DNA of 26,817 nt from Chiloscyllium plagiosum (lineage: Eukaryota), in assembly GCF_004010195.1 (NCBI RefSeq), contig NC_057752.1:1443902-1470718 (forward strand). The letters are read 5' to 3'. Of the stretch, positions 501-21,993 are shown piece by piece. Both the position numbers and the translations under genes were made by a program. How positions within the stretch are numbered: the first letter of the stretch is position 1; the number at the start of each line of letters is the position of its first letter. The notes under the pieces were generated by a model that had not been told where the DNA came from, did not search any database, and worked only from the letters and a program-made list of their open reading frames with translations.

Positions 501-1057
501 AGAACATAGAATCCCTCCAGTGTAGAAGCAGATTATTCAGCCAGTCAAGTCCACACTGACCCTCCGAAGAGTATCCCATCCACAACCCACCCCCAACCCC
601 ACCCCACCCTGAAACCCTGCATTTCCCATGGCTAGGAGGAGAAAGTGAGGACTGCAGATGCTGGAGATCAGAGCTGAAAATGTGTTGCTGGAAAAGCGCA
701 GCAGGTCAGGCAGCATCCAAGGAACAGGAGAATCGACGTTTCGGGCATAATTCCTGAAGAAGGGCTTATCCCCAAAACGTCGATTCTCCTGTTCCTTGGA
801 TGCTGCCTGACTTGCTGCCCATTTCCCATGGCTAATCTACCTAGCCTGCACATTCCTGGACACCACGGAGCAATTTAGCATGGCCAATCCACCATAACCT
901 ACGCATCTTTGGACAGTGGGAGGAAACCAGAGCACACGGAGGAAACCCACGCAGACACAGGAAGAACGTGCAATCTTCGCACAGACACTCGGCAGAGAGT
1001 GGAATCAAACCGAGGTCCCTGGCGCTGGGAGGCAGCAGTGCTGACCACTGAGCCACT
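501..1057 (-). mobile_element. HE1-like tRNA-derived V-SINE, interrupted by a PLE-derived insertion at 635-819
   Basis: Reverse complement has the tRNA-like head TGGCTCAGTGGTCAGCACTGCTGCCTC, the V-domain core (GTGTCTGCGTGGGTTTCCTCCG) and a CR1-like tail. It is homologous to 1629-1955. Confidence 0.88.
635..819. mobile_element. Non-autonomous Penelope-like fold-back element with a mutated hammerhead motif
   Basis: 15-bp TSD CATTTCCCATGGCTA (620-634 and 820-834). 53-bp inverted repeat 698-750/766-818 with 3 mismatches. CTGAAGA-A-GGGC-TTAT-CCCC-AAAACGTC at 754-781. Confidence 0.85.
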
Positions 1058-1061
1058 TTGT

Positions 1062-1133
1062 TACCTCGGTGACAGGTGGGACTTGAACTCAGAACTTCTA
1101 GCCCAGAGGCAGTACCACTACATCACAAGACCC
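1062..1133 (-). mobile_element. Short tRNA-like SINE fragment
   Basis: Reverse complement GGGTCTTGTGATGTAGTGGTA...GAGTTCAAGTCCCAC has A/B-box-like motifs and resembles 8661-8770 and 26037-26146. Confidence 0.55.
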
Positions 1134-1628
1134 CTTTGCCCACCCTCCATACAGAACGGAATTAAGCATCAATCGAGCTTGACCAAATCTTTGTTGACCC
1201 GAATATTAACCTGCCCCACCATAATATGATTGGCATTTCAAATGGCAGGGAAGAGGATTGGAGCCTGCTGTCGGCGGGGATTCTTCTGTGAATCAGAAGA
1301 ACTCAGCCATGCCCACCCCCAAGTTGGCCAAACCCTCCTTTACTTCCCTGGGTCTTGCATTCATTGTGATCTTCACCTTGGGACTGTCTGGAAACATTCC
1401 CCCTGCTCCCATCTCCTTTTTCTCACCTTTCAACAAAGACCTTTTGATCTGATTGGACCACCACATTTTAACTTTTCATTAATGAGGGGGCATGAGTTTC
1501 CCACTCACCACTGATTTAATCTCAAACATCTGACTGAATCACAACTTCTCCAAATTAAAGGAGCATGCAGGGCAAGCAAATGTAAGGAAAGGAGATTCTC
1601 CCAACTAAATGCTGTGACCCTAAAGTTA

Positions 1629-1955
1629 TGGGCGGCACGGTGGCACAGTGGTTAGCACTGCTGCCTCACAGCGCCTGAGACCCGGGTTCAATTCCCGCCT
1701 CAGGCGACTGACTGTGTGGAGTTTGCACGTTCTCCCCGTGTCTGCGTGGGTTTCCTCCGGGTGCTCCGGTTTCCTCCCACAGTCCAAAAGATGTGCAGGG
1801 TCAGGTGAATTGGCCATGCTAAATTGCCCGTAGTGTTAGGTAAGGGGTAAATGTAGGGGTATGGGGTGGGTTTCGCTTCGGCAGGTCGGTGTGGACTTGT
1901 TGGGCCGAAGGGCCTGTTTCCACACTGTAATGTAATGTAATCTAATCTAATCTAA
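1629..1955 (+). mobile_element. Full-length, young HE1-like V-SINE
   Basis: A box (TGGCACAGTGG), B box (GGTTCAATTCC), V-domain, and (TGTAA)n(TCTAA)n tail. Probable TSD CTAAAGTT at 1620-1627 and 1952-1959. Many CpGs are retained. Confidence 0.93.
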
Positions 1956-2192
1956 AGTTCTGCTGAAATGCTGATTATTTAATCCCTTAAACGCAACGTG
2001 GAATTTCAGCTCCAGCCTGGATTAAGTCACCCCATCCAGCACCTTTCCTATTTTGGGTGGCTCCATTAAATTCTGTCCAACATGTGGAATTAAAACCCAG
2101 AATAAATCAGAAAAGGGTGGTAAATATATTCATATCTAAACAATACTACACCAGAACATTCACAGATGCTTCAGCATGAAATAAATGATCTA

Positions 2193-2994
2193 GCTCCCTG
2201 AAAGTGGCAACACAAACAGATAAGGTGGTAAAGGCAGCTTATGCCTTGCTTGCCTTCATTGGTTGGGACACTGAGTGTAAAAGTTAGCAAGTTATGTTGC
2301 AGCTGTATCAGACTTTAGTCAGACTACATTCGGAGTATTGCGTTCAGTTTTGGTTACCAAACTATAGGAAGGACATGGGGGGCTTTGGAGAGGGTGCAAA
2401 GAAGTTTATGAGGATGTTGCCCAGATTGGAGATTGGACAAACTCTGACTGTTACCATTACAGCATCAGAAATGGTCCTCAGGGGTGACCTGATAGAAGTA
2501 TATAAAATTATGAGAGGCATGCATAGGGTGGATAGTTGGAATCTTTTTCCCAGGGTAGAAATATCAAATTCCTGAACGATGGATTCCTGAAGAATGGCTC
2601 ATGCCCAAAACGTCAATTCTCCTGCTCTTTGGATGCTGCCTGACCTGCTGCGCTTTTCCAGCAACACATTTTCAGCTCTGATCTCCAGCATCTGCAGTCC
2701 TCACTTTCTCCTAGAAATATCAAATACTCGGGAGCTTAGGTTTAAGGGGAGAGGGAAAAGTCTAAAGGAGATGAGCAAAGCAAGTTTGTTTTTTCCGAGT
2801 TTGGCAGGTGCCTGGAACATGCTGCCAGGGGAGATGGTAGAAGCAGATACAATACAGACACATGAACAGGTAGGGAATAGAGAGAGACATAGGCCGTGTG
2901 CAGGCAGATGGGATTAATTTAGAATGGCATCACGGTTGGCACAGACATGGTGGGCCGAAAGGCCTATTCTTGTGCTGTACTGGTCCATGTTCTA
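2193..2994 (+). mobile_element. CR1/HER1-type LINE, 5'-truncated 3' fragment (degenerate ORF2 C-terminus and tail)
   Basis: Translation LQLYQTLVRLHSEYCVQFW...LRGDLIEVYKIMRG is typical of the CR1 ORF2 end. Tail GGGCCGAAAGGCCTATTCTTGTGCTGTA. Interrupted at 2570-2711. Confidence 0.9.
2570..2711 (+). mobile_element. PLE-derived short element with a mutated hammerhead (same family as 635-819)
   Basis: 14-bp TSD TAGAAATATCAAAT (2556-2569 and 2712-2725). CTGAAGA-A-TGGC-TCAT-GCCC-AAAACGTC from 2587. The 3' part is the reverse complement of the left arm of 635-819. Confidence 0.85.
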
Positions 2995-3670
2995 TAAGGA
3001 AGTTCTTACCCAAAAAGCCAACTGACTGCACTCCATCCTCAAAAAAAAAGAGGTAGGCAGTCACGTTGCAAAATTCAATCTTTTTACAAAAGTATGTCAA
3101 CACTGTACATGAAAGTGAATGCAAATTGTAAACAGAATGCTTCATGTGAAGGGTCTCTACTTGAAACATTAACCTGCTTTATCTTTTCAAACTTGTTTCA
3201 AATTCAAGAATTGCCTTTCATAGATATTTATGGATTTGTGAAACTACCTTGAGCGGTATAGATTGCTTCATCCACAAAATACTCAATTTTATCATTTTCT
3301 TTCAGTCATAACAGAAGATTAAATTTCACAGAACTTAAGGCTAAAGATTCAAAGTTCATGTATTAAACAAGAAGACTGGCAACATTTACCTATGTTAAAC
3401 TGCTACTTTCACATATTGTAATTATTGTAAAGGAGTTGAGTGAGCCCTTCCATTCAATGTACCAGGCATGACTCAGCTACCATCAAACCTTTCTCTCTGC
3501 GATATGATAGAGGACAGAATTTTCTGATAATTACAATTCACAAACACAAAATCTTTGCTTTTCGTATATTCCTCAGTTTTTCAATGCATTCATTAGTGCT
3601 TCTTTGTCCCAACTCTTCAAAAAGACTCAAAGGCCAATATTTTTGTCATGAAATGGCAGCCTTTCCTAGA

Positions 3671-3935
3671 TCTATCAACAAACATCGCATTAGACCCCAT
3701 CTACCACCCCCTGAGAAAAAGGAACAGAAAGTGACTTCACCACAGGAAATAACATCACCAACCCAAAGAAACCCAAGTATATAAATAGAAAGCAGGAATT
3801 TTCAGCAGTGCTTCGCCTGGAGGCTACTGATGATGTTACCTAGTAGGGGGACAAAATGTCTGGAAATGAACCTTCAAGCTCAGCAAGCAAACCTACATCC
3901 AAAACCTCAACCGACAAATCTTCTCAAAGCTCGCT
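3671..3935 (+). mobile_element. 3' end of a Penelope-like retroelement (ORF C-terminus plus pseudo-LTR with decayed hammerhead)
   Basis: SINKH(frameshift)LDPIYHPLRKRNRK* at 3671-3734 resembles, from recall, PLE ORF C-termini after the GIY-YIG domain. CTGATGA-T-GTTACC...GGGGAC-AAAATGTC at 3827-3860. Downstream sequence is homologous to 21835-21867. Confidence 0.72.
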
Positions 3936-4440
3936 CAGCTTAAGGGCTTTTGGCTGGATAGAATTTGCTTCAGTTCAGAGATTGAGTTAGCAGTCTGTGG
4001 GCATCTCCAGTTTTGGTACAGCTTTAACAGTGCTGCTAAAGATAAACTGGCTTATGACAGCTTCCCTAGGAGGGGGCCTTCCAACAGCACGAACTCATAA
4101 CTGAATAATTATGAATAGAGTAGCTAATCCACAACAACAACCATCCAACAAAAAGAATCAGATGTTTATATGTCCCAATCAGTCTGTAACAAGTGGCCCC
4201 TTATAATAGAGAGAAATCTAATTTAGGGTTCATATTTTATATTGTTAATGAATGTTATATCTGGAACTGAAGCGGTTGAAAAGACAACCTATTGCATGGA
4301 CATTGAAGAACCATCGGTAAGTAAAGGAACGCAAATGCTAATTATATCTCAACAGAAGAGCAAAAGGACAATTCTTAGCCCCCTTGCAAAAAAGAAGTTC
4401 GAATCTAACCATTACTCTCAAAACTTACACATGAGTAAAG

Positions 4441-4640
4441 AGCTGAAGCAAACAAAAACAGAAGTACTGGAGAACCAGAATTAAGGTTTCAAGGCCAGTG
4501 CCATTTCGAAGGGTCACTGGGCTCGAAATGTTCATTCTGTTTCTCTCTCCACAGATACTGCCAGGCCTGCTGAGTTCCTCCAGTACTTTCTGGTTTTGCT
4601 TACTTCAGATCTTCAGTGTCGGCAGTTCTGTTTTCGAGAA
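4441..4640. mobile_element. Old PLE-derived fold-back element with a hammerhead remnant
   Basis: Imperfect inverted repeats (4487-4500/4515-4528; AGTACTGGAG/CTCCAGTACT). GAAGGGTCACTGGGCTCGAAATGTT remnant lacks CTGA. Shares the GAT.CTGCC..CCTGCTG motif with other copies. Possible TSD GAGTAAAG. Confidence 0.6.
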
Positions 4641-7334
4641 GAGTAAAGGTCTTTTGGGTCAGCCTCAACCCACCAAATCCAAGTATCCCAGTACCAAAGA
4701 CAAGACACTTTATAAAGCATTTAAACGGCTCAACATTAGTTCTTGCTGATACTCTCCTGACTGTGCACAAACTAAAGGACTTTTTGGCAAGACAAGATGT
4801 TTGATTTTCTGAGAGGCACCATCTTGCTTTTAAAAGATGTGAAAAAAATAACATTGAATTAAACGTTTTAATATAAATTTTGGTGGACAGACTTTTTAAC
4901 GCTTGAAAACATGACTGCTTCTCCCACTTCACAATTGTCACACGAGATGGATGAGATAGACGACGTCGCTCAGTGCTGACTGACAGGAAACAGCTTGTGT
5001 GGTTGAGGCAAGGCTCCATCCCAGCCCAACCCCCATCTCCTGCCGATTGTTGCTGTGAAAGATAAAGAATACTCAAAGAATCACGAGGCTCGCCACAAAG
5101 AACGATTGAATTGGTTCAATCAAGAGTGCAATTAAGGGTGAAACCCAGTTGGAACAATTGCTTGAAGAAACAAACAATATCATATCCTGGGCCTTGATAT
5201 TCTAAAACAAGTAGGAGGCAGTGGCAGATGGCTCATTTTCTGATCAGCAATAATGTAGACGTTTCTCATACCAGATGCTGCCAAGAGGTAGGGGCACGTT
5301 TTACTGCTGGAAATAAGATTTTTGTGGTCATAAGCATTCATTACTGGCTGCAAATGCCTCCACACGTCACACTTCTCACATGGGGAAAATCATACTGGTT
5401 ACAAAACTTCCATCAAGAGACAATTGTAATGCATGAAGGGGTTTCTAGCCGAGATTGAATACTGGGTGCTAAGTCATACGAATCAGTAACCGAGTTAGAC
5501 AGCAAACTGAACGATTGTAACAAACTGGAGTACCTCCCCCCTCCTCCCAACACAACTGTGTCTGTAATAAGCTGCATTATTTTACAAGTAAGTATTTGAT
5601 ATTTTAATGGTGACTCAAGCCCTGGGTCTTCACTTTTGCAAACTTATAATGAGGAGAAAGGGCAGGGGTGCAGCATATTGTAAATTGGTAATTTTTTTCA
5701 TATGTATCTCATAAAAGTTTGATCCAAACATTTAAATTTTTTGGCAAACTACTTGTGCATTTATTTGGATTCTGTATTACAACAGTTTGTGCAGTTTACC
5801 CATCACAGTGGGTATTTTACTTTGCAAGAGTCTGCTTATTAAAAGGATCTTTTGTTCAGTCAATTTTAAAAACTAAAAGAAAATATGGCTTGTTCTAAGT
5901 ATCATACAAGCTTTGATTTTGACCTTAATTTTGCAATTTAACAGGCTCCCTTTTGTATTCTGCAGAACAACAACGTCAATACTAGCTTTTTCTTAGCCGC
6001 CTACATCAGGATTTTCTGAACTAGCAAAGCTTATTTCACATCTCCAGTTTAGAAACGCTGTATTTTGGGTGCATTCCGATTGCCATCACTAGCTAGAGCA
6101 TTGTTTTCAAAGAGCAGTCCTGCGCTAAAACTGCAACCAAAAACAATTGGGAATGGGCATGACTGGCCAATGTTCAATCAGCACATAAAGCAGCTGCTTT
6201 TTGAAGTGACAGTGTATGTCTACATGCAGAGAGTCAGCGGAGATTGACTCTGGAAAATAGATTTTGCTCTTGTATCTCACTATTGAAAATAGAGAGCTTT
6301 CCAGACGGTGCAATGCGTAAGGGCACCGTGTGGTATGGCACAAAAGCCATACAGGGAATGATCACAGGTGTGATTGCCATCCTCACTGAAGGAGCTGATT
6401 CCATGTTGGGATACCAGCTGAAGGTCCAAGTTGGCTCCAATTTCACTGGTGGCATGGTGTGGTGCTGCTGGTGGTGGTGGTCAGGGAGGGGAAAAGAAAT
6501 CAGTCATTGTTCGACAATGTCTGGCCATTATCCAAATAAGCTTAATGAGAAATGCACGTGGTGCCAATTGGTCACAGTACACAGAATTTACAGACCAACT
6601 GCCGAGGTCTAGGGCAGGGTTTAACCTTTCACACAAACTTCTGACCAGCCTACTCCTTCACTCAAGGCAATCTGAAAATTGTGATCAGCCATGATACCCT
6701 TCACAGTTTCACAGCCTGCACACACACAGTTCCATTTTACATCCTGGGTGGGAATGCAGCCCAATGGGTGTCCAGATGATTTTAATCCAAGAGCCTCGCA
6801 AACATACCACTGGCATCCCGATCAAGATGACCTGGGCGTCAGTGGGAAATAGTGCAATTGGTCAGGAAGACTTTGCAAGGAACTGGCCCTGGCCCTCGGG
6901 CAAGTGATCAGGAGTTGGGGCTGGGGTGCTATGACATCGATAGCAGTTGGTCGGGGTAGGGAGTTATCCTGTTCAAGATCCACACAAACTATTTAAGAAA
7001 ACATTTTTACACTTCTCTTTCTCATCTCTGCTGGCCCTGGACTAAGTTCCCAATGGTTTCAATCTGGTGGGGAAGCCAGTACCACTCCATTGCTGAGGTA
7101 TTGCAGTCAGTATATGACACAGAGTCTGACTGACACATTTAAATAGTGTGGTTTCAAATGGGCCTCTTTGGCATTTGCAATGTACAATTACAGTCGACAA
7201 GACTGGGGACAGTGGTAAGTCCTATTTTAACAGATGTCAGCCTGGCAGAAACCAGGGTGGGGAAGTTCAAATTTCATCCCAATCTGTTAGGACGGATGAA
7301 AACAAAAAAATAATTATTAACCTATTTTTCTGAT

Positions 7335-7408
7335 CAGAGAAGTTATTACACACCTCTGGAGCTGATGGGACTTGAACCCAGGGACACTACCACTGCACCA
7401 CAAAAGGG
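7335..7408 (-). mobile_element. Short tRNA-like SINE, internally deleted
   Basis: Reverse complement TGGTGCAGTGGTAGTGTCCCTGGGTTCAAGTCCC contains A- and B-box-like motifs. Confidence 0.6.
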
Positions 7409-7486
7409 CACAGATAAAGACATGCAATTGGAGTTAACTACTGGCATGGACCGGTCATTTACAGATCTGTGCCATAAGTTCAGATA

Positions 7487-7628
7487 GCAGTGATAGTGTC
7501 CCTGGGTTCAAGCCCCACCTGACATCTCTGAACAGGTTAGTTCGAAATAGGAGAGTCAGGTCCAGGTTCAAGCCCCACTTGTGCTAGATGTGTGTCATAA
7601 CGTGCCTGAATAGGCTGATCAAAATAAT
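7487..7628 (+). mobile_element. Two tandem partial copies of the short tRNA-like SINE
   Basis: GGTTCAAGCCCCAC occurs twice (about 7505 and 7565), each followed by CTGAA.AGG.T...AAATA as in 8661-8770. Confidence 0.55.
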
Positions 7629-7834
7629 CATAAGTTAGGAAGAGCAAAACATTGAGTGGGCATTTGGGGTCTGGTGGCTGGAAAATCAGCTCCAGCTATG
7701 GAGAATTAACCAGAGAAAAGAATAAAGACCACCCTTAATATAAAAGGGAAGCCACTCAGGGGTGTATAGCAAAGATCTACAAAACATTAGATTAAACACA
7801 GCAAGAAACTGCAGGGTGAAACTTCAGGAAGCAA

Positions 7835-8504
7835 GGAGGTGGAGCTGTGTGCAGTGGAGATGGTCGAGAGTATCAAGTTCCTGGGAGTGACAATCACCAA
7901 CAATCTGTCCTGGTCTACTCACGTTGATGCTACGTCCAAGACAACACAACAATGCTTCTTCTTCCTTAGGAGGCTAAGGAAATTCGACACGTCCGAAAGG
8001 ACTCTCACCAAGTTTTACAAATGCACCATAAAAAGCATCCTATCTGAATGCATAACAGCTTGGTATGGCAACTGCTCTGCCCAGGACCATGAGAAATTAC
8101 AGAGTTGTGAACACAGCGCAGTCCATCACGCAAGCTAACCTTCCACTCATTGGCTCCATCCACACTTCCCACTGCCTCAGGAAGGCAGCCAACATCAAAC
8201 CCTTCCCACCCGGGTTACAACTTTTCCAACCTCTTCCGTCAGGCAGAAGATATAAAAGCTTAAACACACACACTAACAGGTTTAAGAACAGCTTTTTCCT
8301 TGCTGTTATTAGATTACTGAATGGACCTCTCTAATTTCAAATCTAATTTTGATGTTGCTTTTGTACGCCACCTTTGTCGCCGTATATTCCTCGCTCTGTT
8401 CGATCACTCTATGATCTTCGTAGGTTATGGTCTACCTGTACTAAATGCAAACCAAAACTTTTCACTCTACGGAAGTACATGTGACAGCAATAAATCAAAT
8501 CAAT
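7835..8504 (+). mobile_element. Rex1/Babar-like (CR1/L2 group) LINE 3' fragment
   Basis: VESIKFLGVTITNNLSWS...FFLRRLRKF...ITAWYGNCS and FQPLPSGRRYKSL...TNRFKNSFF..VIRLLN are post-RT motifs of this group. Ends in AATAAATCAAATCAA. Confidence 0.85.
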
Positions 8505-8660
8505 AAGGAGTGGAGTTGAAGAAGTGCATTGCTGAAAAATGTGGATCCCGGCCAGATGCCTCGTTTTCCTACTCATTAAACACAGGGTACTAACTGGCCC
8601 ATGACTGGTTGGTAAGTGGAATGTTTCAGTTCTGACAGGACCCAACTGTTTGTCTCGAAA

Positions 8661-8770
8661 GGTCTTGTGACACACTGGTAGTGTTGCCACCTCTGAGACT
8701 GAAGGTTCAGGTTCAAGTCCACATGCTCTGGTCATGTGCTGTAGCATGCCTGAACAGGTCAATTGAAATA
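8661..8770 (+). mobile_element. Short tRNA-like SINE
   Basis: GGTCTTGTGACACACTGGTAG...GGTTCAAGTCC; other copies at 1062, 7335, 7487 and 26037. Confidence 0.55.
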
Positions 8771-9254
8771 ACTACTTTTTTTTGAGGTAGAAATTAAAAC
8801 AAGCTGCCTCCCTCCAATGAAAGGAAAAGATTTGTAGAAGTATGCTACACCATGCTCTCTGCCCTCCATACAAGGAGGAGGGGTGGTAAGGAAAGAGTGA
8901 TCACAAACTCATTGTGACCCGTCACGTTTGCTTTTGGTAAAGGAACGTCTGCTTGTGCATTGTCCAGGGCACATTCAAACAATTCATGAATCCAGAGCCA
9001 AGTCTCTGGTCCTACCCTTAAGTGTGAAGTCTCCCACGAAACACACCCAATATACATTATAAATCACAAGAAAGTGTGTCCCTGAGTACACTTAGATTTT
9101 ATGCGTCTGTTTATATCATTGGCTTTTGAGATTAGCAGATCAAAAAACATACTTGCAACATCATTCGGAAATAGAGTTGGGATGTGTAGCCTGCCCAAAC
9201 TATTTCCAGTAGAGGTGGGCAGTATACAAATTGGGTGCTGCCACTGCATTTCAC

Positions 9255-10370
9255 CTGGTTTTGTGAAAGGGAAATTTGCATTTGAAATAATTTATTGGAG
9301 CTCTTTGAGGAGTAACAGATAAAGGGAAACTTGTGGATATGGTGTAAGTGGATTTTCAGATGACATTTGAAAGGGTGTCACATTAAAAATCACAGTGTAA
9401 AATAAGAGCCCATGGCACAGGGAGTAACATATTAAGATTAAAAGAGGGGTGGTTAGCTAACAGGAAACAGAATAGGCATAAAACCGATAATCTTTGAGCT
9501 GGCAAGAAGTGAAGTGCTACAGGGATCAATGCTGCGGCCTCAATTATTTACTCTTTATCAATGACTTAGACGAAGACATTTAAGACATGGTTGTTAAATT
9601 TTCTTCTGACAGAAAGATAGGTCGGATAGTAAATTGTGAAGACACTAAGAATACCTGAATGGGCAAGAAAATCTGGAAGATGATGCGTAACGTGGGAAAA
9701 TGTCAATTTGTCCACTAGCAAAAAGAATGAAAAAGCTGTACATTACTCAACAGTTGAGATGCAGGTACAACAGGTGATTAGAAAGGTACATGGAATATTG
9801 GTTTTAGTGCAAGGGGAATGGAATCTAAAAGTAAGGAAGTTTTGTTTCAGTTGTATGGGACATTGGTGAGACCAGATCTGGAGTAACGTGTACAGTTTTG
9901 GTTTCCTAATTTAAAAAGAGGGTATAATTGCATTAGAAGCAATTCAGAGAAAGTTTGCTCAACTGTTTTCTGGAAAGAAGGGGTATTCTTTTGAGGAAAC
10001 AGTGGACCCATAATCATTGCAGTCTCAAGACTGAGAGGTGATGTCATTGAACCTTACAAGAGTGAGGGGACTTGACAGAATCGATACTGACAGGAGGTTT
10101 CCTCTTGTGGGAGAGACTAGAACTAAGGATAGTTTAAAAGTGATAGGTCTCCTATTTAAGATGGCACTTAGGAGAAATCCTCTCTCTCAAAGGGATTGCA
10201 AACCTGTGGAATGCTCTGCCCCTGGGAGTAGTGAAAGCAGGGTCTTTTAATGTTTTTAAGACATAGCTTGATCGAGATGGTATCAGATCAGCCATGATGT
10301 TATCACAGAGACCAAGTGGAGCATGCTCAAGGAACCAATTGGCCAATACCTGCTCTTAACTCACATACCT
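9255..10370 (+). mobile_element. Old CR1-type LINE ORF2 (RT to 3' UTR), heavily degraded
   Basis: Remnants such as QGSMLRPQLFTLYQ, LYGTLVRPDLE.RVQFWFP and RVRGLDRIDTDRRFPLVGETRT, with many stops and frameshifts. Confidence 0.85.
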
Positions 10371-11147
10371 GTATACAGTAGACAACACAATGCAGAGTAT
10401 TTGAATTCTGGAAAACTTACAGCAGTCCTTTTTTGATTTGCAACAGTCACTCCAGAAAAAAATTATTTTAAAAACTTTAACCTAAAAAGAACCCTCATCA
10501 CTAGCTTTATGCTCAGGCCACATACTTTTCACAGGTTTCCTGCATATAAATCTACTGCTGCGTTGTTAAAAATTAAGAAAAGGTGTACTGTTAAGACTTG
10601 AAGTGAAATTTAGACAACTGATTCTAACTAGCTTGCCACGATCCTTTATTTCTGCACAAAAAGAAATGTTTACCTCAACAGGCTTTTTGCAAGCCTTCAA
10701 ATATGTTCCAACGCAACTTTTCAAATTCGATTAAAATTGCTTCCCTTCGTCTCAGCTATGGTTCTTGGAATGTGACTCCCCTCGTAAACAAACACCTTCT
10801 TAAAAAAAAGTTGGCAAGTTGCACACAAACATTTGTAGTGAATTTTCCTTCTCTTGTAACATTGCCCAGCTGTAATTTTTGGCTCTGAAGGAAGTGCCAC
10901 GGCTGTAGAATTTCCTGCACTCAACTTCACCACATGTATTGCAGCTGAGAAAAGCATGGAAATGTTGCTCTCTCTGTCTGCCTGTGAAAGGTTCAAGGCA
11001 GAAGAGGAGGACCCCAATTCTCTGTAACTTGGCAGAATGGTGTCTTGTCTGTATCCATGTTCTGGCAATGCCCCAAAGAGGCAGACGCTTTTTACATTTG
11101 TTCTCCAAATGTAAGGATCACTTGAGGTTTAATTAATTGCCCATTCT

Positions 11148-11874: not shown

Positions 11875-12028
11875 AAGTAAATTGGCCATGCTAAATTGCT
11901 CATAGTATTCAGGGATCTGTAGGTTAAGTGCGGAGAATGGGTCTGGGTGGATTACTCTTCGGAGGGTCAATGTGGACTTGCTGGGCTGAAGGGCCCGTTT
12001 CCACACTGTAGGGATTCGATGATTCTAT
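11875..12028 (+). mobile_element. HE1-like SINE, 3' half
   Basis: ATTGGCCATGCTAAATTG...GGGCTGAAGGGCCCGTTTCCACACTGTAGGGATTC matches the 3' part of 1629-1955. Confidence 0.85.
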
Positions 12029-12299
12029 GAAAGGAAGTTGGATGTGTGAAGGTTTGCCAGATTGATCATGAGCTGCACTCAGAATTCCTGATTTCGATTG
12101 GTCTGCTTTAGGATTGAAACATTCATCGTCTTCCTTTTGAATGTCAGGGCCTTGCAAGATCCTGGTGCTAAGCCCATGTGCATCACTGATCAAACAAGCC
12201 CATGACCTATTCAGTAGGCAGCAGTTTCCCACATGGATCATGTGATACAGGTGTCACTTAGATCTTGGACCGGAACCAGGGTCAAGATGATCTAGAATC

Positions 12300-12555
12300 T
12301 TTTTTTAAATTCATTCACAGGATAAGGGCATCGCTGGCTAGGTCTGGAGTCACATGCAGGCCAGATCATTTCCTTCCCTAAAGGACATTAGTGGACCAGA
12401 TAGGCTTTCCCAACAATCAGCAATGGAATCGTCGTCATCATTAAACTCTTAATTCCAGATTTTTATTGAATTCAAATTTCACCATCTGCCATGAAAGGAT
12501 TTGAACCTGGGTCCCCAGCACATTACCTGGGTCTCTAGATTGACAATTCAGCGAC
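12300..12555 (-). mobile_element. Second Deu-type SINE copy, internally deleted
   Basis: TGAATTCAAATTTCACCATCTGCCATGAAAGGATTTGAACC is the reverse complement of about 11214-11254. Confidence 0.7.
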
Positions 12556-12792
12556 AAGCTCGAATGTATCCATAAGGCTTCATATTCCACTTTCTGGCAG
12601 AACAAGGTGTTTATTGGAATGATGCCATGCTGAGCACACTTTCAGGAGGATGATGCCATTTGCATTGGCATTTCCACCCAGTTTTTCCCCAATGCTTCCA
12701 CCCCAGACATTGGAGTTATGGCCAACTGTGGTGTAAAGTCTCCCAGAAAGATGATCTTTTCTTCTTTTGAGATGGCAGTAAGGACTTCATCA

Positions 12793-12988
12793 GGGCGTGG
12801 AGGTGCCGGTGTTGGTCTGGGGTGGACAAAGATCTTGCCCCATCACTTGTATGACACTTTGATCTTTTACTATAAATTCCATGTCCTATGATCCTGCCCC
12901 ACTAGCTACCTGACGAAGGAGCAGTGCTCCGAAAGCTAGTGCTTCCAAATAAAGCTGTTGGATGATAACCTGGTGCGGTGTGATTTTT
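12793..12988 (+). mobile_element. PLE-derived short element carrying an intact hammerhead core
   Basis: 10-bp TSD GACTTCATCA (12783-12792 and 12989-12998). Hammerhead at 12907-12941. Confidence 0.82.
12907..12941 (+). ncRNA. Minimal type I hammerhead ribozyme motif
   Basis: TAC-CTGACGA-A-GGAGC-AGT-GCTCC-GAAA-GC-TA-GTG: both core boxes intact, 5-bp stem II, palindromic AGCT stem III, CUA cleavage triplet, and 3-bp stem I (TAC/GTG with one G-U). Confidence 0.75.
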
Positions 12989-13288
12989 GACTTCATCAAG
13001 GTTAGAACAGAACTTTTCCTTAACATCATCAGTGTCTGGGCTAAGCACTGATGATGACAGCATGTTAAATATTAGTACACATCCAAAATCAGTGAATAAA
13101 TGTAGAGATTGAAATGGCACATGGCTTAACTTCAGGCGCGTCATGACAACCCTGAAATTCACAAACCGTTGGACCTTCTCTGTCCTTCAGTAACGAATGG
13201 GCCACATTCCTGCTTTGAAAGCTGTAAGACAGCCCGAATAAAATGCAAAGGATTGACTAGAGAGTCAATATTTTAAATTTCAGTACAA

Positions 13289-14165
13289 TGTAAGAGATGA
13301 CATCTTTTTATTTTTGGACAGTGGACTGAAAGTGAGAAAAACAGACACTGCTTTTCAGAAGGGGAGAGTATTCAAGGAGTTGCTTGCAGCTTCAGAAAAA
13401 CAAGTGAAGCCACCTGATACATGTGAGACAGTGTTCCATTTCGGAAACACTGAATCCAGACAATCTGGTACCATTTGTTGTGGGACCAGGAGGGCCTAAC
13501 ATAATAACAACCCTCTGATTGGGTCAGGTTGCAGTTTAACACAGACCTTGTTAGGGAAGTGAAAGAGAGAGAAGCAAGGAGACCTGCATCAATCATTCGC
13601 TCTCCCCTTTCTTGAAAGTTGCTATCTCCAATTTTCTGTTGGAAAAGCAGAAAATCTACATTCAGAGACACTGAAAGAAATAATTCTAAAACCCAAAGAC
13701 AGCCCCATGTCCAAGTATGCAACTTGATTATCGCTGTGCAGATAGAGGTTTCCATGAAGAATTGAAATGATTATGAAATCAACCCATCTAGTTTTGTGAT
13801 TTGAACTGGTAATGCAGAACTGGATTCTCCTAACTATATTTTTCCCTCCCACTCACAGTACCTATGCTTTCTTTTGGGTGTACATGTACGTATGTGGGAC
13901 AATTTTAAAGGGGGTAAAGTTTAAGTTACATAAATTAGAAACCCTGTTCTTGTGAAAAGTAAGTTTCAGTAACTTCACAAAAAAAGTTACAAAAAAGGAA
14001 AAGTTTTTTTTAAAAAACTGTCAACTGAAGAGAGCTATTATGGTCTGCTTTTATCCTGGGTAGCAATCAGAGGCAAATTGAGAGTTTTGGATGTTTAATT
14101 AACTCTTCACATTTGTGGTGACTCAGAGCTTGATTTCCAGTGCCCAGCTCCAGTGAGTTGTGACA
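13289..14165. mobile_element. Probable old solo LTR
   Basis: TGTAA...TGACA termini with flanks TACAA/TAGAA (4 of 5 match, a possible TSD). No internal coding sequence. Confidence 0.45.
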
Positions 14166-14361
14166 TAGAAAGGGATCAACAGCTATTGTGAATTCCCTAT
14201 TAGATTAGATAGACTGGCCCACATCATGACTTTGTCCCTGTGGGCCAGGTGTAGGGTTATACAGTCACCGTGTTCAACTTTGGTTTGATGCTTCAGAAGT
14301 CTTGAGCACAATGCCTTTCCAGACTCTCTGTCTAATCCATTTCTTGGCCTTTCACTGACAG

Positions 14362-15095
14362 GAACATAGGATTGAGGAGGAGTAGGTCATTTCGAGCCTG
14401 CTGCACGGTTCAATAATATCATGATTGATCTGGTTGTGGTCTCATCTCCACTTCCCGTCTGTCTCCCATAACCCTCAAATCCCTTGCCTATCAAAAATCT
14501 AACTAACCAAGCCAGTGAATAAATTTGAAGACCCGTCCTACACTAGCTTCCGGGAAAGAGAATTCCACATGTTTATCATGGAATCCCTACAGCGTGGAAA
14601 CAGGCCATTTGGCCCAACAAGTCCACACCGTCCCTCCAAAAAGAGTATCCCACCCAGACCCATTCCTCTACCCCTGACTAATGCAGCTAACTTACACATC
14701 CCTGAATGTTATGGGCAATTTAGCATGGCCAATCCATCCTAACCTGCACATCTATGGACTGTGGGAGGAAACCGGAGCACCCGGAAGAAACCCACGCAGA
14801 CACGGGGAGAATGTGCAAACTCTACACAGACAGTTGCCAGAGGCTGAAATCAAACGTGGGTCCCCCTGGCACTGTGAGGCAGCAGTGCTAACCATTGAGT
14901 CCCAGAGAAAAAAATAGTCTTCATTTTTGTCTTAAAAGGAAGATCTCTTAATCTTAAACAATGTTGCGCAGTTTTGGTCTCCTCCACAAGAGGAAAGTCG
15001 TCCTGTTATCCATAGTATCCATTCACCTCACGATCTTATGTGCTTCAATAAGATCACCTCTCGTTCTCCTAAACTCCAATGGATATAGACCTAAC
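14362..15095 (-). mobile_element. CR1-type LINE 3' fragment interrupted by a SINE
   Basis: Reverse complement reads AGGAGAACGAGAGGTGATCTTATTGAAGCACATAAGATC (RRTRGDLIEAHKI). CR1-type tail near 14362-14420. Confidence 0.75.
14575..14900 (-). mobile_element. HE1-like V-SINE
   Basis: Reverse complement of the head, V-domain and tail of 1629-1955. Confidence 0.9.
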
Positions 15096-16566
15096 CAAAT
15101 TAGGAAGACATTACTACAGACATAACACAAACGTGGGAGGGAGTTGGTGTTTCTAAAAGATAGTAGGACTCAGAGGAAAGAAACAGAGAATTATTATCAT
15201 AAAACAAAGCTGTAACACCAGAAAAGAGCAGGGGCTCACAGGCCATGCAATCTGTAACAAATTGAGTGCCTGAAGCATTTCAGCACCCCCGCCCACTGTC
15301 ACACCTGCTTCACACAGCTGCTACAGTGCTGCTGAGTGATAGGTCATGCTGAGGTTAAGCAGCTTCCATTGCAGTGGATTTTATCATGGAAGAAAAACTA
15401 TAATACCCAAACCCAGCAACGTACAATCCTGAAGGCTACTGCTTCTCAATTACTCCAGAATGATTACATTTCTCAGTGTGGAAATCTGAAACACTGAGAA
15501 CATAACAGCAACAGCGCAGCCGCTCCCACTCACTTGGCTAATTTCACAAGTAGCCATTATAAATGTTTAACTTGTTTACTGACTTGACGATTCTGTTCAT
15601 GCCATTTACACAGCTGGTACTTTTGAAAGATACGCAACGCAATCATTGCCATATCATACCTGTTATTATGAAAATTATACCCCTGTCGGTATTTAATATT
15701 ACCTACCACTCCCTTTCGTTCTCATAATATTGCATTTTATTTTCCATTTGTAAAAGCAAGCCATCTTATTGATAAAATGAAACAAAATGAATTGGAAGAT
15801 TCATCTCAGGCAATGCACTCTCTGAACAATTGGATTTTCTAAGATTTCCTCTGGACTCGCATGTTAAGGAAGTAGCACAAAATCTGAGCAAGCTGTTGAA
15901 GAAGGATCAAATGAATAAATTGAAGGCTTTTTATTAAGGTTCCACAATTATTCTTGAAACCCAACAACAAATAGCTCTCATTTGGGTATGAAATGGAAAT
16001 ACTGCTGGTTTCAAATCACTTACCCAGTGTCAATCCTCCAAAACCTTTTCAAGGGCTATTTCAATAAGACTTGTATCCAGCCAAAATGAGTGCAAGGTTG
16101 GCAAAGTGCTTGCTGTTCTCGCCTGTGCCATTGTCAAATTTGGGATTCATTGAAAGGCAACTTCTTGCCCAGCGTTCAATGCCTGCTGGTGGGCATCTCA
16201 CTACAGCAGAGCTGGTGAGGTGAGCAAGGGACATTACCCAGCACCATTTTCTAAGGTTAGGAGCAACGTTCCTACTTTTCCTTGTCTCACAAAAGTGATC
16301 CAATTTACTTCAATTTGCAAACAGTATCCTACAACCAGAGAAGGACCGTGAGTGTAGCAGTTAAACAGCAGTTGTTTCAGACTGGAACATTTGCCGGAAA
16401 ATCTGTGTCAGCTAGATCTGGAGGGTCTCAGGAGCAGTCATTCTTCCCTGCCATTTTCAAACCAACAAATGCCTCATAAACATAACATGGAGATGCTGAA
16501 AAAGGCCCAAACATACACCTAGCAGAGGTCACTCAACAGTAACCAGATGACTTTTCTAAGCAGGTT

Positions 16567-16916
16567 CGAGTGGCATAATGGTTAGCACTGCTGCCTCATG
16601 GCACTCGGGACCTGGGTTTGACTCCACTCTTGGGTGTCTGTGTGGAGTTTGCATGTTCTCCCAGTGTCTGTGTGGGTTTCCTCCGGGTATTCCAGATTCC
16701 TCCCATAGTGCAAAGATGGGCAGGTTAGGGTGGATTCGCAATGCTAAATTGCCCATAGTGGCCAGGATGTTCAGGCTAGCTGGACTAGCCATGGGAAATG
16801 CAGGATTACAGGGTTAGGATAGCAGGTGGGTCTGGAAAGGATGCTCTTCAGAGGGCCAGCGTGGACTTGATGGGCTGAATGGCCTGCTCCCACACTGCAG
16901 GGATTCTATGATTCTA
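16567..16916 (+). mobile_element. HE1-like V-SINE
   Basis: Head TGGTTAGCACTGCTGCCTCA, V-domain, and tail CACACTGCAGGGATTCTATGATTCTA. Confidence 0.9.
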
Positions 16917-17663
16917 GGGGTACATTGATGACAACTAGAATATCCACACTCGTGTCAATTTTCAGGCACAGCCTCAAAGGTTCTGTGCTGTATTGTTCTG
17001 CGTTCCACGTTCTGATATGCTGTTAAGATCCTACAGGTAAATGTACTTTACAGGTTGCTTTTGGACTTCTTTTTACATACAACAAAGAATTAGTCACAAA
17101 TGAAAAGGGATTTGTACTTAGATCCACTAATTTGTATCTCCCTATCTAAACAGGACCTACAGCAGGACATAATCCTGCCTTGGGGGCAATCAGACCATTA
17201 TCCTCGTGTAATTATCACGGGCGAGTTGAATATTTATAACGAATAACAAGGCGGTCAGAAAACCGTAGGCAGTCAATCCTACAGCGGTGCCTTATTGAAG
17301 GAGGGAGAAACACAAAGATGGCAAACTAGGAAAACAAATGATCAATCATTTTTACAATCATAAGCTCTGAAGGGATGTACAAAAACAAGGATTAGTGATT
17401 TTTTTCAGGTCATTGATAAGAGCAAATACCCACCCAACATTAAGATGATCCACCAGGGCCTCTGTGAGACGTGTAGCGGCTGCAACAGCTTCCCTCCTCC
17501 TTTTTTCTGAAAGGAAATGAAGATATGAAGTTGGTGAAGAACTGCCTGGTCACTCTGTTCTATCCTTGCCCTCTAAAATAAATACATATGCATGACCGAA
17601 ATAAAATCTGGCATTCTAAATATCTAGTGGTGCTATCAAAGTACACAATTAGAATGTCCTATG

Positions 17664-17740
17664 GAGCTGAAAATGTGTTGCTGGAAAAGTGCAGCAGGTC
17701 AGGCAGCATCCAAGGAGCAGGAGAATCGACGTTTCGGGCA
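17664..17740 (-). mobile_element. Fragment of the PLE-derived element (635-819 family)
   Basis: Near-identical to 671-747. Ends inside hammerhead stem II (GACGTTTCGGGCA). Confidence 0.85.
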
Positions 17741-17743
17741 CGA

Positions 17744-17953
17744 GTGTCTCCCAGTGTCTGCGTGGGTTTCCTCCAGGTGCTCCGGTTTCCTCCCACAGTC
17801 CAAAGATGTGCAGGTTAGGTGAATTGGCCATTCTAAATTGCCCGTACTGTTAGGTGCATTAGTCAGAGGGAAATGGGTCTGAGTAGGTTACTCTTTGGAG
17901 GGTCGGTGTGGACTTGTTGGGCCTGTTTCCACACTGGAGGGAATCTAATCTAA
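17744..17953 (+). mobile_element. Headless HE1-like SINE
   Basis: V-domain through (AATCT)n tail; tRNA head absent. Confidence 0.88.
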
Positions 17954-18230
17954 TTGTTCTGCACTGTAGGAGGGTTGTGTAAGACAGATGAGAGTGACAC
18001 GCCATGATCGCAGATCGCCAGGCAGGAGTAGGTACAAACAAGTGATTGTGGAATGATAGAACAGTTGGCAGCCAATCACAACTAATCACCCCACATGTTA
18101 GAAGCAGACTGCGCGCTTTGCAGGATCTATATGTACCATTCCTCACTCCCTGTCCTTGCTCCCCACCCGCGTGAGAAAATTGGAGACAGCACCAAGACAG
18201 TAGGAGTACTTTTCCATTCTATGACCAAGT

Positions 18231-18330
18231 GAGTCTGACGAAGAATTATCTCGACTCGAAATGTTATCTTGTCCTCTCTCCATGGATGCTGCCTGACCCG
18301 CTGTGATCTCCAACGCTTTTTATTTTCAGA
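18231..18330 (+). mobile_element. PLE-derived short element with a degenerate hammerhead
   Basis: CTGACGA-A-GAATT-ATCTC-GACTC-GAAA-TGTT at 18235-18265, then CTCTCTCCATGGATGCTGCCTGACCCGCTG as in 4441-4640. Confidence 0.7.
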
Positions 18331-19509
18331 GTAAATGTGGCAATGCCATTTTGTGATGATGTGATTGCTGCAGAAAGAGCTGGAAAACTATTCCAAAACA
18401 GTTCTTAAATGCCTATTCCGAGCAGCTACCCTTCATGGACAGCCTGGACAGTTACCATCACAGCCAAGCAGTGGAGTTGGGGGAAACAGTGAGGACTTAC
18501 CATATGATGACCAGGAACAAAATTAGTTTTCTGCTTTATTCCCTTCCCCAAGATTAAAATATAAACTAACTGGAATAGCTACTGTCAACCCAAAGATTGA
18601 ACGCAATGTCATTTTGGTCTGTGAAGGTCAGCACCACATTTGCCTTCTATCTTATCGCAGGAATTCCAGAACAGTAGCATTTGACTCAACATTGAAAGAT
18701 ACTTTGTTTCTCCATTTTAATTTTGCTAAGGTTAGCAGGCCAGTAAAAAGATGTAATATTGCAGCAATGTTTTGCCCCACAAAGTGTGCTGATGTATGTA
18801 ATTCCTCACACGGTGCATTCTTGATCTTGGTCTTGGTCTTGTCACAAGAAAGGAGACATAAAAAGCTTAAATGCCAAGAGGAAGGCAGGAGCCTGTCCAC
18901 AATGAGGAATAAGCACAGGAGCAAAAAAAATACAAATGAGTCACTTTTGGTTAACTTAGCACAATTTCTGGCATTCGGATTGACAGCGGCTTATGAATGA
19001 GGATGTGAAATCCAAAGAACAAAGAAGAGAAATAAACAATTACTGTTACTTTAAATCAAAAGAATATTTAATTGTCACTGCTTATCCAAATCTCATTTTC
19101 TTGCTTCTGAACAGCAAAAATCTTCATAGTTGCTACCTCTACAGTGTCATTTTATACAGCAAAACCTGAAGCGACGATACTAACTTGCCATTAGCTCACT
19201 AATTTTGACAACATTGTTTCTAATTCTGAAAAATGTATGAAGACTTCAAAAGAGAGAGAAATGGAACAATAGGCACAGCAAGACCTATGCGTCAAAGGCC
19301 AGCAACATTAGCACGGTCTGCATACAATTTGAAAGCACCTATGGATTCTGTAATCGAAGACTGAAGATGTTAAGCTGTTTAACACTGGTGGAGAAGCAAT
19401 AATCACAGATCTGTCATTAGTGCTGGAGGGAGGTAACTAGAAATAGCATATTAATTGAATCAATAAAAAAAATTGATTTCATCATCAAAGCTCAACTTCA
19501 TACATTGCT

Positions 19510-19670
19510 CTGGATTAGTGGTGCTGGAAGAGCACAGCAGTTCAGGCAGCATCCAAGGAGCTTCGAAATCGACGTTTCGGGCAAAAGCCCTTCATGCTGC
19601 CTGAACTGCTGTGCTCTTCCAGCACCACTAATCCAGAATCTGGTTTCCAGCATCTGCAGTCATTGTTTTT
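19510..19670. mobile_element. PLE-derived fold-back element
   Basis: 15-bp TSD ACTTCATACATTGCT (19495-19509 and 19671-19685). Perfect 44-bp inverted repeat 19509-19552/19594-19637. The loop holds a minus-strand partial hammerhead ATGA-A-GGGC-TTTT-GCCC-GAAACGTC. Confidence 0.88.
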
Positions 19671-21099
19671 ACTTCATACATTGCTGCAGATCTGTTAAAA
19701 TCAAAAACATCACTCAAATCAATTCTGACAAAGGATTTGAAAATGACCTGAAACATAACCCTGTCATTTTGTCTTCTCTGACACTGATCTATTGTGAATT
19801 GCCAGCATTTGCACCTTTTATCTTAACAGTTTTGACCTTAAGACAATATAGCACTTCCTTCACATTTAGTAAGCTAATGTGATGAACTGGCTTTGGTAAC
19901 CGGGTTACAAAGGCTTTGTTAGATAAAATGGAATGTAATACAGTGTGGTTGCTTAAATAATTTTAAAAGAGAATGGGAGGTGGGGGCGGGGGGAAGAGAA
20001 CACACTACTTTTGGCCTTTGGATGCTGGACTCACACAGAACGTCAGCAGTTTCTGGAGATTATTATTCCTTACTCAGACTGTGGGAAAAGATGCTGGCCA
20101 GACTTCAAGGTCTCTGCTTAGAGAATAACTTGGGTCTCCAAGGTAATTAGAATTGGGCCAACTGTGACTGAGGAATAACTTTATCTTGACTAGAGAACAG
20201 AGGCTGCTCTGATAGTGTTTATTCCTTGAAGTCATCTGTTACACTATGGGACAAAGGGGAGAAAATACTGGGCATAGCAGCCAGATCAATGCAGTCAGTA
20301 ATTTGGCACCACTGTAACATTTGATTTGATTAGATCGATCGTGAAAATTGTGGGTGAGTCACAGCCAAGTAACTTACCGTTGGCTTAATAAAACATTTAT
20401 TGTAACAAGTAGCTTTTACAACGAATTGCTTGTGAAGGGAAAGCAACAAATGTCAAGCAGAAGACTTGCAATATTTTGACCTCTTGCTCGCCTTCAATTG
20501 CACAAATACCAACATCCCAGAGGTACCTTGCGCAACTTCATGTGCAAGCTGAAAAAGTGAATGCCAACCAGTTATTCAAATCTGGACGGTATCACAACTA
20601 GGCCAACATGCACTTTGTAGCAGCGAGTCACTGGATAGCGAACAGAAGTGGGAACCCTCTATCTGGGCCAAGATCACAAAGAGAAATTGGAACTTTCCAA
20701 ATTGACCAGCTCACTCAGATCAGGAATTAAAGATAAACATTTTGTCTGTATGGCTGTGTACCACACCAACAGTTCATTTAACCATATAAATACAGGGGAC
20801 AGATTGCATTTATTACTTTTACTAGCTGTGAATCATTGCATGAACACATTACTATATAGCGTCTACATCTCAAAGGTGGAACTAAGACATATGGTCCGTG
20901 TAAGGATTTTTTTTAAGCATAAAACAAATTAAGAGGTTGTTGAAATTGCAAGAGCAAAATAAAAGCTTTTAAAAAAAAAAATTTTTTAAAAATTGACATC
21001 CAGAAAAGAGAATGTCAGTATTTTGGCCATTTGATCAGAATTGAAAAGCTACAGAGATCTCTTCTAGAGGGCAAAATAGCAGGCAGTAGAAAGAAGCAT

Positions 21100-21993
21100 T
21101 GACCTGGTTAGATGAACAAAGAGACCTTGGAGTGCAGGCTCATCGTGCCTTGAAAGTAGAGTCACAGGTAGATAGGATAGTGAAGAAGGCGTTTGGTATG
21201 CTTTCCTTTATTGGTCAAGGCATGGAGTATAGGGGTTGGGAGGTCCTGTTGCAGCTGTACAGGACATTGGTTAGGACAATTTTGGAATATTGTGTGCAAT
21301 TCTGGTCTCCTTCCTATCGGAAAGATGTTGTGAAACTTGAAAGGGTTCAGAAAAGATTTACAAGGATGTTGCCAGGGTTGGAGGGTTTGAGCTATAGGGA
21401 GAAGCTGAACAGGCTGGGGCTGTTTTCCCTGGAGTGTCGGAGGCATAAGGCTGACCTTAGAGGTTTATAAAATCATGAGGAGCATGGATAGGATAAATAG
21501 ATAAGGCATTTTCCGTGGGGTGCGGGAGTCCAGAACGAGAGGGCATAGGATTAGGGTGAGAGGGGAAAGATATAAAAGGGACCTAAGGGGCAACTTTTTC
21601 CCCCAGAGGGTGGTACGTGTATGGAATGAGCTGCCAGAGGAAGTGGTGGAGGCTGGTACAATTACAGCATTTAAAAGGCATCTGGATGGGGACATGAATA
21701 GGAAGGGTTTTGAGAAGAACTGTAGCTCAGGTTGAGGTTCTGGATTTAAGTTTGCTCGCTGAGCTGGAAGGTTCATTTTCAGACATTTCGTCACCGAGCC
21801 TCCGGGTGAAGGCTTCATCCGGAGGCTCACGGTGTGAAAACGAACCTTCCGCCTCAGCGAGCAAACCTCCAGAATAGGAAGGGATATGGGCCAAGTGCTG
21901 GCAAATGGGACTCGAATAGGTTAGGATATCTGGTCCATGGAGGAGTTGGACTGAAAGGTCTGTTTCCGTACTGTACATCTCTATGACTCTATG
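21100..21993 (+). mobile_element. CR1/HER1-type LINE 3' fragment
   Basis: EQRDLGVQ...LQLYRTLVRTILEYCVQFWSP...LERVQKRFTRMLPGL and RGNFFPQRVVRVWNELP. (CTCTATGA)n tail. Confidence 0.93.
21715..21871. mobile_element. PLE-derived fold-back element (3671-3935 family) inserted in CR1
   Basis: Outer inverted repeat about 21749-21781/21835-21867 and inner hairpin 21796-21828. Homologous to 3811-3910. GAATAGGAAGGG is repeated on both sides. Confidence 0.8.

Follow-up and report, generated by a model that had tools for sequence, protein, structure and literature searches.

Short hammerhead-bearing repeats of the shark Chiloscyllium plagiosum are very probably truncated ends of endonuclease-bearing Penelope-like elements

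A stretch of 26,817 nucleotides from the 3.56-Gb genome of the shark Chiloscyllium plagiosum (contig NC_057752.1, positions 1,443,902 to 1,470,718; hereafter the window) contains nine short repeats, carrying a hammerhead ribozyme motif or a remnant of it. The original prediction had located them at 635, 2570, 3671, 4441, 12793, 17664, 18231, 19510 and 21715, and all nine are present. They belong to six families, indicated as A to F, and an inverted arm is found on five of them. Very probably, they are 5'-truncated 3' ends of six families of Penelope-like elements (PLEs) bearing an endonuclease (EN), and likely represent dead-on-arrival by-products of retrotransposition. The elements are listed below, with their pseudo-long terminal repeat (pLTR) arms, their target site duplications (TSDs) and their identity to the ends of copies linked to PLE open reading frames (ORFs) at other loci (L followed by a number). 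The terms Neptune-type and Poseidon-type designate putative assignments, made by the linker between reverse transcriptase (RT) and EN or by homology, and not by a tree.

635..819, both strands: family A fold-back of a Neptune-type pLTR, with a minus arm at 635-748 (tail, no CUGA box) and a plus arm at 750-819 (core, G12 lost); 15-bp TSD at 620-634/820-834; inserted within a short interspersed element (SINE) copy; 98% identical to the ends of L324 and L121.
2570..2711, plus strand: family A copy consisting of the pLTR alone, tail included; the hammerhead (core at 2587) has lost G12 and one pair of stem II; 14-bp TSD at 2556-2569/2712-2725; 96.9% to L121.
3671..3936, plus strand: family C (Poseidon-type), with the last ~15 codons of the PLE ORF, the 3' untranslated region (UTR), a hammerhead remnant (core at 3827, G12 lost) and the pLTR end; 88.7% to L051, which carries an RT thumb and a GIY-YIG domain.
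4441..4640, both strands: family D (old Neptune-type) fold-back, with a decayed minus arm at ~4441-4505 and a plus arm at ~4503-4635 without CUGA; 8-bp TSD at 4433-4440/4641-4648; 78% to L232, linked to RT/GIY-YIG.
12793..12988, inverted tail and forward pLTR: family B (Neptune-type), with the inverted tail at 12793-12830 (94% to family tails) and a forward pLTR which is itself tail-less; 10-bp TSD at 12783-12792/12989-12998; 90.5% to L028, linked to GIY-YIG.
12903..12944, plus strand: intact minimal hammerhead of the latter element, with core at 12910, stem II GGAGC/GCTCC, GAAA and the AGCU palindrome; the predicted cut follows position 12938.
17664..17744, minus strand: family A fragment starting in the middle of stem II and reaching ~+90, without CUGA, tail or TSD; fused to the 3' half of a SINE; 98.7% to L121.
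18233..18329, plus strand: family F (Neptune-type) pLTR-only copy; core at 18235 intact, stem II mismatched; 86.5% to L100, linked to GIY-YIG.
19510..19670, both strands: family E (Neptune-type) fold-back, with a tail-less minus arm at 19510-19593 (which keeps stem II, GAAA and the palindrome but loses CUGA at the junction) and a plus arm at 19594-19670 carrying the tail; 15-bp TSD at 19495-19509/19671-19685; 95-97% to L216, L222 and L225, linked to RT/GIY-YIG.
21711..21871, both strands: family C-related (Poseidon-type) fold-back, both arms without CUGA; 12-bp direct repeat at 21696-21707/21872-21883; 89-90% to L051, L056 and L060; located in the tail of a long interspersed element (LINE).

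The clean TSDs predicted for four copies were confirmed, with lengths of 15, 14, 10 and 15 bp at 635, 2570, 12793 and 19510; the shorter repeats at 4441 and 21715 are additional, and no TSD of at least 7 bp was found at 3671, 17664 and 18231. A perfect short hairpin (21795-21829) occupies the junction of the fold-back at 21711; it is made of the sequence that immediately precedes the core in family C, the core itself being lost in both arms.

Each of the six families recurs elsewhere as a 3' pLTR placed directly downstream of Penelope-type coding sequence, of Neptune-type for five of them (A, B, D, E and F) and of Poseidon-type for family C. Since every family continues upstream into PLE coding sequence, the window copies, which are 78-99% identical to the ends of coding-linked copies, can be regarded as 5'-truncated PLE ends. 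The origin of the repeats from several Penelope-like families, and their insertion by PLE RT and endonuclease with formation of TSDs, are thus upheld. Their description as non-autonomous, ribozyme-defined, retrozyme-like families is not, as all six continue into coding sequence and the window contains no tandems.

For family A (635, 2570 and 17664), upstream sequence is shared by 6 of the 19 other top genomic matches and leads to a C-rich UTR, which at L012, L017 and L018 continues into PLE coding sequence. A protein search with the family A RT gave 60,785 first-look candidates; at 18 of the 20 best RT loci, one being the query locus, an A-type pLTR is found 1.1-1.5 kb downstream on the same strand, and one of the two remaining loci is an assembly gap. 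Open RT-to-GIY-YIG frames of 684-749 amino acids are present in copies 95-99% alike, and include RVT_1 (Pfam E-values 1e-8 and 3e-6) and, past a C-x4-C-x2-C linker, GIY-YIG, whose E of 3e-4 falls slightly short of the cut-off. Among the named homologues of the encoded protein, the closest belong to Chiloscyllium punctatum (80-83%) and Rhincodon typus (70%); a PDB sequence search with this protein gave 0 matches. The window itself shows no significant tblastn match to it, and no PLE RT. Very young Neptune-type copies (~97-99% alike) with open RT-to-GIY-YIG frames were observed at L313, L315, L319 and L325; the family to which they belong has probably been active recently.

The other families were followed in the same direction. 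For family E, reached by searching the genome with its 3' UTR, RT or GIY-YIG lies upstream on the same strand at 9 of 25 loci, with a Pfam GIY-YIG match above the cut-off. Family D shows RT or GIY-YIG upstream at 4 of 25 loci, in decayed form, a fifth match being weak and partly E-type. Family C (3671 and 21715) has GIY-YIG at 7 of 25 loci, plus RT at L048; family B has GIY-YIG with the Cys linker at L028 and RT at L039; family F has GIY-YIG at L100. In family C, too, GIY-YIG was recognized by Pfam, and the domains of B, D and F were identified by tblastn or in translations. A zinc-finger-like CX2-5CxxC linker between RT and EN is clear in A, B and E, decayed in F, and was not seen in D. By the linker criterion of Craig 2021 (PMC8557442), A, B and E would be Neptune-type, as would D and F by homology; family C would be Poseidon-type, the L051 and L060 translations having no Cys linker between RT and EN. 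The linker is common to Neptune and Nematis, and the assignment is not tree-based; for these reasons the label is limited to "Neptune-type".

The integrity of the motifs was evaluated by a strict descriptor, requiring the core, a stem II of at least 4 bp and GAAA, and results were compared with 200 dinucleotide shuffles of the window. Only one of the nine elements passes (12910), against a mean of 0.075 in the shuffles. G12 is lost (GAAA to AAAA) in 635, 2570 and 3671, the CUGANGA box is missing from 4441, 17664, 19510 and 21715, and stem II is mismatched in 18231. A relaxed descriptor found 5 distinct sites, a weak excess over the shuffles (mean 1.15, maximum 6), and a half-motif descriptor gave 3 against a mean of 2.17, which is at chance. 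In an Rfam scan no hammerhead family was returned at E <= 5, the only matches being hairpin-driven microRNA ones below gathering scores. The predicted succession of CTGANGA, stem II, GAAA and palindrome, or a remnant of it, was recognized in all nine elements, and in its complete minimal form only at 12910. The versions of stem II which the original prediction had described as decayed pair fully in better copies of the respective families (GTTACC/GGTGAC or GGTAAC; GAGTC/GACTC). The suggested covariation of stem III (ACGT versus AGCT) corresponds to a single fixed difference between family B and the others, and is not statistical covariation.

The strict minimal descriptor was also applied to a genome sample of 120 stretches of 10 kb, 20 adjoining the window and 100 at round positions on other chromosomes, for a total of 1,165,409 non-N bases at arbitrary, not random, positions. 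Here 74 strict motifs were found, and none in any of 10 shuffles; extrapolated to the genome, this gives ~2.3 x 10^5 intact strict motifs. The reality of the motif is supported by this count and by the homology within families. A homology search of the same sample identified 373 pLTR arms, corresponding to ~293 insertions, or about one per 4 kb; the density of ~1 per 3 kb, correctly noticed in the window, is therefore ordinary for this genome. In the face of these results, hairpin miniature inverted-repeat transposable elements (MITEs) of a DNA transposon, resembling hammerheads by chance and named as an alternative in the prediction, are extremely improbable: they would account for the fold-back shape, but the arms, which are internal, lack symmetry, TSDs range in length between 8 and 18 bp, the motif count is 74 versus 0, and contiguity with PLE ORFs refutes them.

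Sequence decay was analyzed in families A and B. Core, stem II and the 15.2-16.2 pair are all kept in 39 of 79 copies of family A and in 9 of 33 copies of family B; G12, a CpG site, is mutated in 18% and 25% of them, respectively. Non-CpG core divergence is 0.028 (A) and 0.034 (B), compared with downstream medians of 0.038 and 0.061. The hammerhead cores of the short copies, or stubs, decay like neutral DNA. Compensatory differences occur between families, suggesting selection in the master elements. Fold-backs are predicted to form single hairpins of -107 to -114 kcal/mol, which bury the motif. For the hammerhead at 12910, stems I and II form in the predicted fold of the monomer; in the homodimer of predicted minimum free energy, stem II pairs between molecules and the active fold is not formed. 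Minimal hammerhead monomers are described as inactive, and dimers as weak, in Cervera 2014 (PMC4209133), where single motifs are interpreted as "probably related to truncated PLEs".

The anatomy of the insertions was studied on the arms of the genome sample. Head-to-head pairs hold 161 of the 373 arms. Of 80 sampled pairs, 69 have the tail on exactly one arm, 9 lack it altogether and 2 have it on both arms; a TSD of at least 8 bp is present in 36 of the 80. TSDs are ~8-18 bp long; 3' ends are fixed, with or without a tail of 30-45 nt. The window reproduces this pattern: element 635 has its tail on the minus arm and element 19510 on the plus arm, and at 12793 only the tail is inverted. The 5' junctions vary from copy to copy. 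One fold-back junction is recurrent, and occurs in two subfamilies with the tail on either arm; this fits repeated joining by microhomology, rather than one master. A shared master junction for the fold-backs was thus rejected, the junctions being heterogeneous and the recurrent one spanning two subfamilies.

The 5' ends are concentrated at the upstream edge of the hammerhead. In families A, E and B, 144 of the 207 arms reaching +10 end at -15..+10 of the core, a rate of 2.7% per nt, compared with 0.26-0.27% per nt at -42 to -300. Among young insertions (identity of 92% or more, a filter which may under-count long copies), 44 of 64 end at this edge versus 19% expected (binomial p ~5e-18). The effect is weaker in family C (5 of 22). 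A start at the cleavage site was rejected, since only 2 of 80 young arms begin there. An alignment artefact, due to subfamilies whose 3' UTR is missing from the reference, is contradicted by the inverted pairs, the TSD-bounded stubs and the young subset; some old copies with C-rich flanks probably do represent such subfamilies. A splice acceptor at the hammerhead edge was also considered, and a shared upstream exon was not seen. In B, D and F, YAG sites precede the core by 2-5 nt, and in A and E they lie farther upstream; a pyrimidine tract followed by YAG 2-5 nt before the core was observed at L100, L028, L039, L235 and L109, which belong to B, D, F and a seventh family. This arrangement is reminiscent of D. 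virilis, where an intron is reported to end at helix I (Cervera 2014, PMC4209133).

RNA ends or circles at the NUH site, which had been indicated as a possible check, were looked for in one polyA single-cell RNA run (~2% sampled, 1769 reads placed), a weak test from a library unsuited to small circles: neither a pile of read ends at the cut site nor a circular joint was found. Among 5' loose ends, the one with most support lies at -4 (98 reads), without any pile of molecule ends; it mirrors genomic stubs and is no demonstration of a transcript end. Reads derive from both strands and their depth mirrors the genomic stubs, which indicates passive transcription.

These data bear on non-LTR retrozymes, i.e. 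tandem hammerhead repeats which self-cleave, circularise and re-insert through a circular RNA. The type I motif with palindromic stem III and TSDs longer than 4 bp would suit them, and 13 same-strand, same-family pairs within 1 kb, of which a few are partial tandems, occur among the 373 arms; pairs of same-strand pLTRs 230-580 bp apart, with intact cores, are found at L169:2174-2400, L180:2209-2543 and L124. Such partial tandems would satisfy the retrozyme definition of Li 2026 (bioRxiv 10.64898/2026.07.22.740005), where retrozymes are reported in the one chondrichthyan sampled. Against this, TRF detected no head-to-tail tandem with hammerheads in any of the nine window elements, the 3' ends lie 55-100 nt past the cut site and young arms hardly ever start at it (the 2 of 80 given above), the motif is minimal and not canonical, and the RNA run, although a weak test, shows no pile of read ends. 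A retrozyme origin is accordingly regarded as very unlikely.

The favoured explanation is truncated insertion of PLEs. Following published PLE biochemistry, the GIY-YIG domain would nick both target strands at a stagger, producing the TSD, and RT would have two alternative internal priming sites downstream of the hammerhead, one of which includes the tail and the other does not. Synthesis of complementary DNA (cDNA) would mostly halt close to the hammerhead's 5' edge, with ~90-135 nt copied, and the cDNA end would be joined either to the target or, through microhomology, to a second cDNA started from the other nick, giving a fold-back. The ribozyme motif would be kept by selection in autonomous master lineages, with the stubs decaying neutrally. 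Cleavage of stubs would be rare, given their monomeric state and, for fold-backs, their confinement within a long hairpin. The preferred account of the pile-up of 5' ends is run-off of RT at the 5' end of the RNA, stalling at the folded ribozyme being the alternative. A more specific scenario may be put forward tentatively, as conceivable though less than probable, in which the stubs record the PLE integration reaction on the scale of a genome: the RNA would start at an initiator-like site ~4 nt before the core, with an uncleaved ribozyme at its 5' end; RT would prime at the two internal sites from both staggered nicks and run off after 90-135 nt, and the cDNAs would be joined head-to-head, having left ~10^6 pLTR arms and ~2 x 10^5 intact motifs. 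If true, the latter number exceeds those reported for any vertebrate in the literature compared. An uncleaved template is favoured by the data, in agreement with Frangieh 2024 (PMC11167929).

Several points weigh against truncated insertion. Only 29 of the 373 arms extend more than 300 nt upstream and short forms dominate, and the pile-up of 5' ends at the core would equally come from a short master RNA. The core is slightly less diverged than the downstream sequence, which makes weak selection on stubs possible. For B, D and F, the link to coding sequence depends on a small number of decayed loci, and a complete element, from 5' pLTR to ORF start, was not found in 20 loci of this gappy assembly, in which partial tandems were seen at L124 and L180. 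In an alternative reading, some short forms would be true non-autonomous families, in which pLTR RNA from stubs, starting at the hammerhead edge, is copied in trans by PLE RT, much as SINEs depend on LINEs. The dominance of the short form, with its preferred 5' end, speaks for this, as does an initiator-like sequence at -4 in A, D and E. PLE pLTRs are reported to contain internal promoters (Schostak 2008), and an initiator-like motif has been noted in a rotifer pLTR (Arkhipova 2013, PMC3846280); a further objection to truncated insertion is that rotifer pLTRs can suffice for mobilisation in trans, according to the latter paper. Non-autonomous PLEs are also known, as MRC1 in Chlamydomonas (Craig 2021, PMC8557442), and Li 2026 (bioRxiv 10.64898/2026.07.22.740005) argues that retrozymes derive from pLTRs. 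On the other side, the identity of short copies to those linked to an ORF is 94-99% in young families, 5' junctions vary among copies, and stubs starting at -4 would have no upstream part of a promoter. Non-autonomous families are thus considered unlikely, and truncated insertion remains the preferred reading.

The surroundings of the elements consist largely of other repeats. An abundant SINE, with a tRNA-like head and a simple-repeat tail, is found at 1631-1945 (plus strand), and related copies lie near 835-1060, 11875-12030, 14575-14900, 16570-16915 and 17745-17955; it resembles the shark HE1/V-SINE type. Fragments of LINE 3' ends, presumably CR1/L2, are located at 2200-3000, 7850-8490, 9300-10380, 21100-21995, 23080-23225 and 26330-26817; elements 2570 and 21715 lie inside them, and 7791-8135 matches PF09004. 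A LINE endonuclease-like coding remnant (12720-13050, minus strand), taken to be RTE-like, is split by element 12793; CTGATGA triplets at 12793 and 13032, within this remnant, are chance look-alikes of the hammerhead box. No transfer RNA was found in the window by ARAGORN. An open frame at 10724-11128 (minus strand) shows a weak match to the FANCM pseudonuclease domain (PF17949, E 0.015, below cut-off); on account of it, the window may lie inside the FANCM gene, and its elements within an intron.

Neither minimal hammerheads within PLE pLTRs nor PLE insertions that are truncated or inverted are new in kind; what is added is quantitative, in that short PLE stubs form a large repeat class in this shark. 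No paper annotating them in this species was found by literature search. Nor was a published description of the 5'-end clustering, or of these shark families, found, Repbase/Dfam and the supplements of Li 2026, which may list the families, being outside the search. The fixed 3' ends, one-sided tails and 5' pile-up allow two PLE questions to be tested on natural events numbering in the hundreds of thousands, namely the origin of PLE inversions and whether or not transposing RNA undergoes cleavage at its ribozyme.

The shark elements share with the insertion units of endonuclease-bearing PLEs, as described in Craig 2021 (PMC8557442) and Arkhipova 2013 (PMC3846280), the RT with C-terminal GIY-YIG, the pLTR, 5' truncation, head-to-head inversion with microhomology, a 30-40 bp tail at one end and TSDs of at least 8 bp. 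They differ in that most insertions consist of the pLTR alone, as stubs of 90-260 bp occurring once every ~4 kb, and in the clustering of their 5' ends at the upstream edge of the hammerhead. The motifs correspond to the minimal type I hammerheads described in metazoan PLEs by Cervera and de la Pena (2014, PMC4209133) in CUGANGA, the unpaired base before stem II, G10.1-C11.1, the palindromic 15.2-16.2, the presence of several families per genome and the prevalence of single motifs. Their number, extrapolated to ~2 x 10^5, compares with ~9,000 in Xenopus and ~4,000 in coelacanth in the same paper, and with up to 120,000 in axolotl (Cervera 2020, PMC7229834), the descriptors being different in each case. 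In the Anolis Poseidon element PAc (Frangieh 2024, PMC11167929), likewise, the tail is accounted for by two internal start sites of RT, nicks are made and extended on both strands of the target, the uncleaved RNA is the template, no RNA-seq ends are reported at the cut site, and ribozyme cleavage is described as unnecessary for insertion; those data are in vitro and concern one lizard Poseidon element, whereas the shark families are mostly Neptune-type and known from sequence. Animal non-LTR retrozymes (Cervera 2020, PMC7229834; Li 2026, bioRxiv 10.64898/2026.07.22.740005) are also non-coding, carry a type I hammerhead and are related to PLE pLTRs, but are described as head-to-tail tandems with usually canonical hammerheads and circular RNAs, in contrast to the single or inverted stubs of coding elements found here. 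The shark elements behave as, and belong to, the insertion units of endonuclease-bearing PLEs; because they are not tandem and have coding relatives, they are not non-LTR retrozymes.

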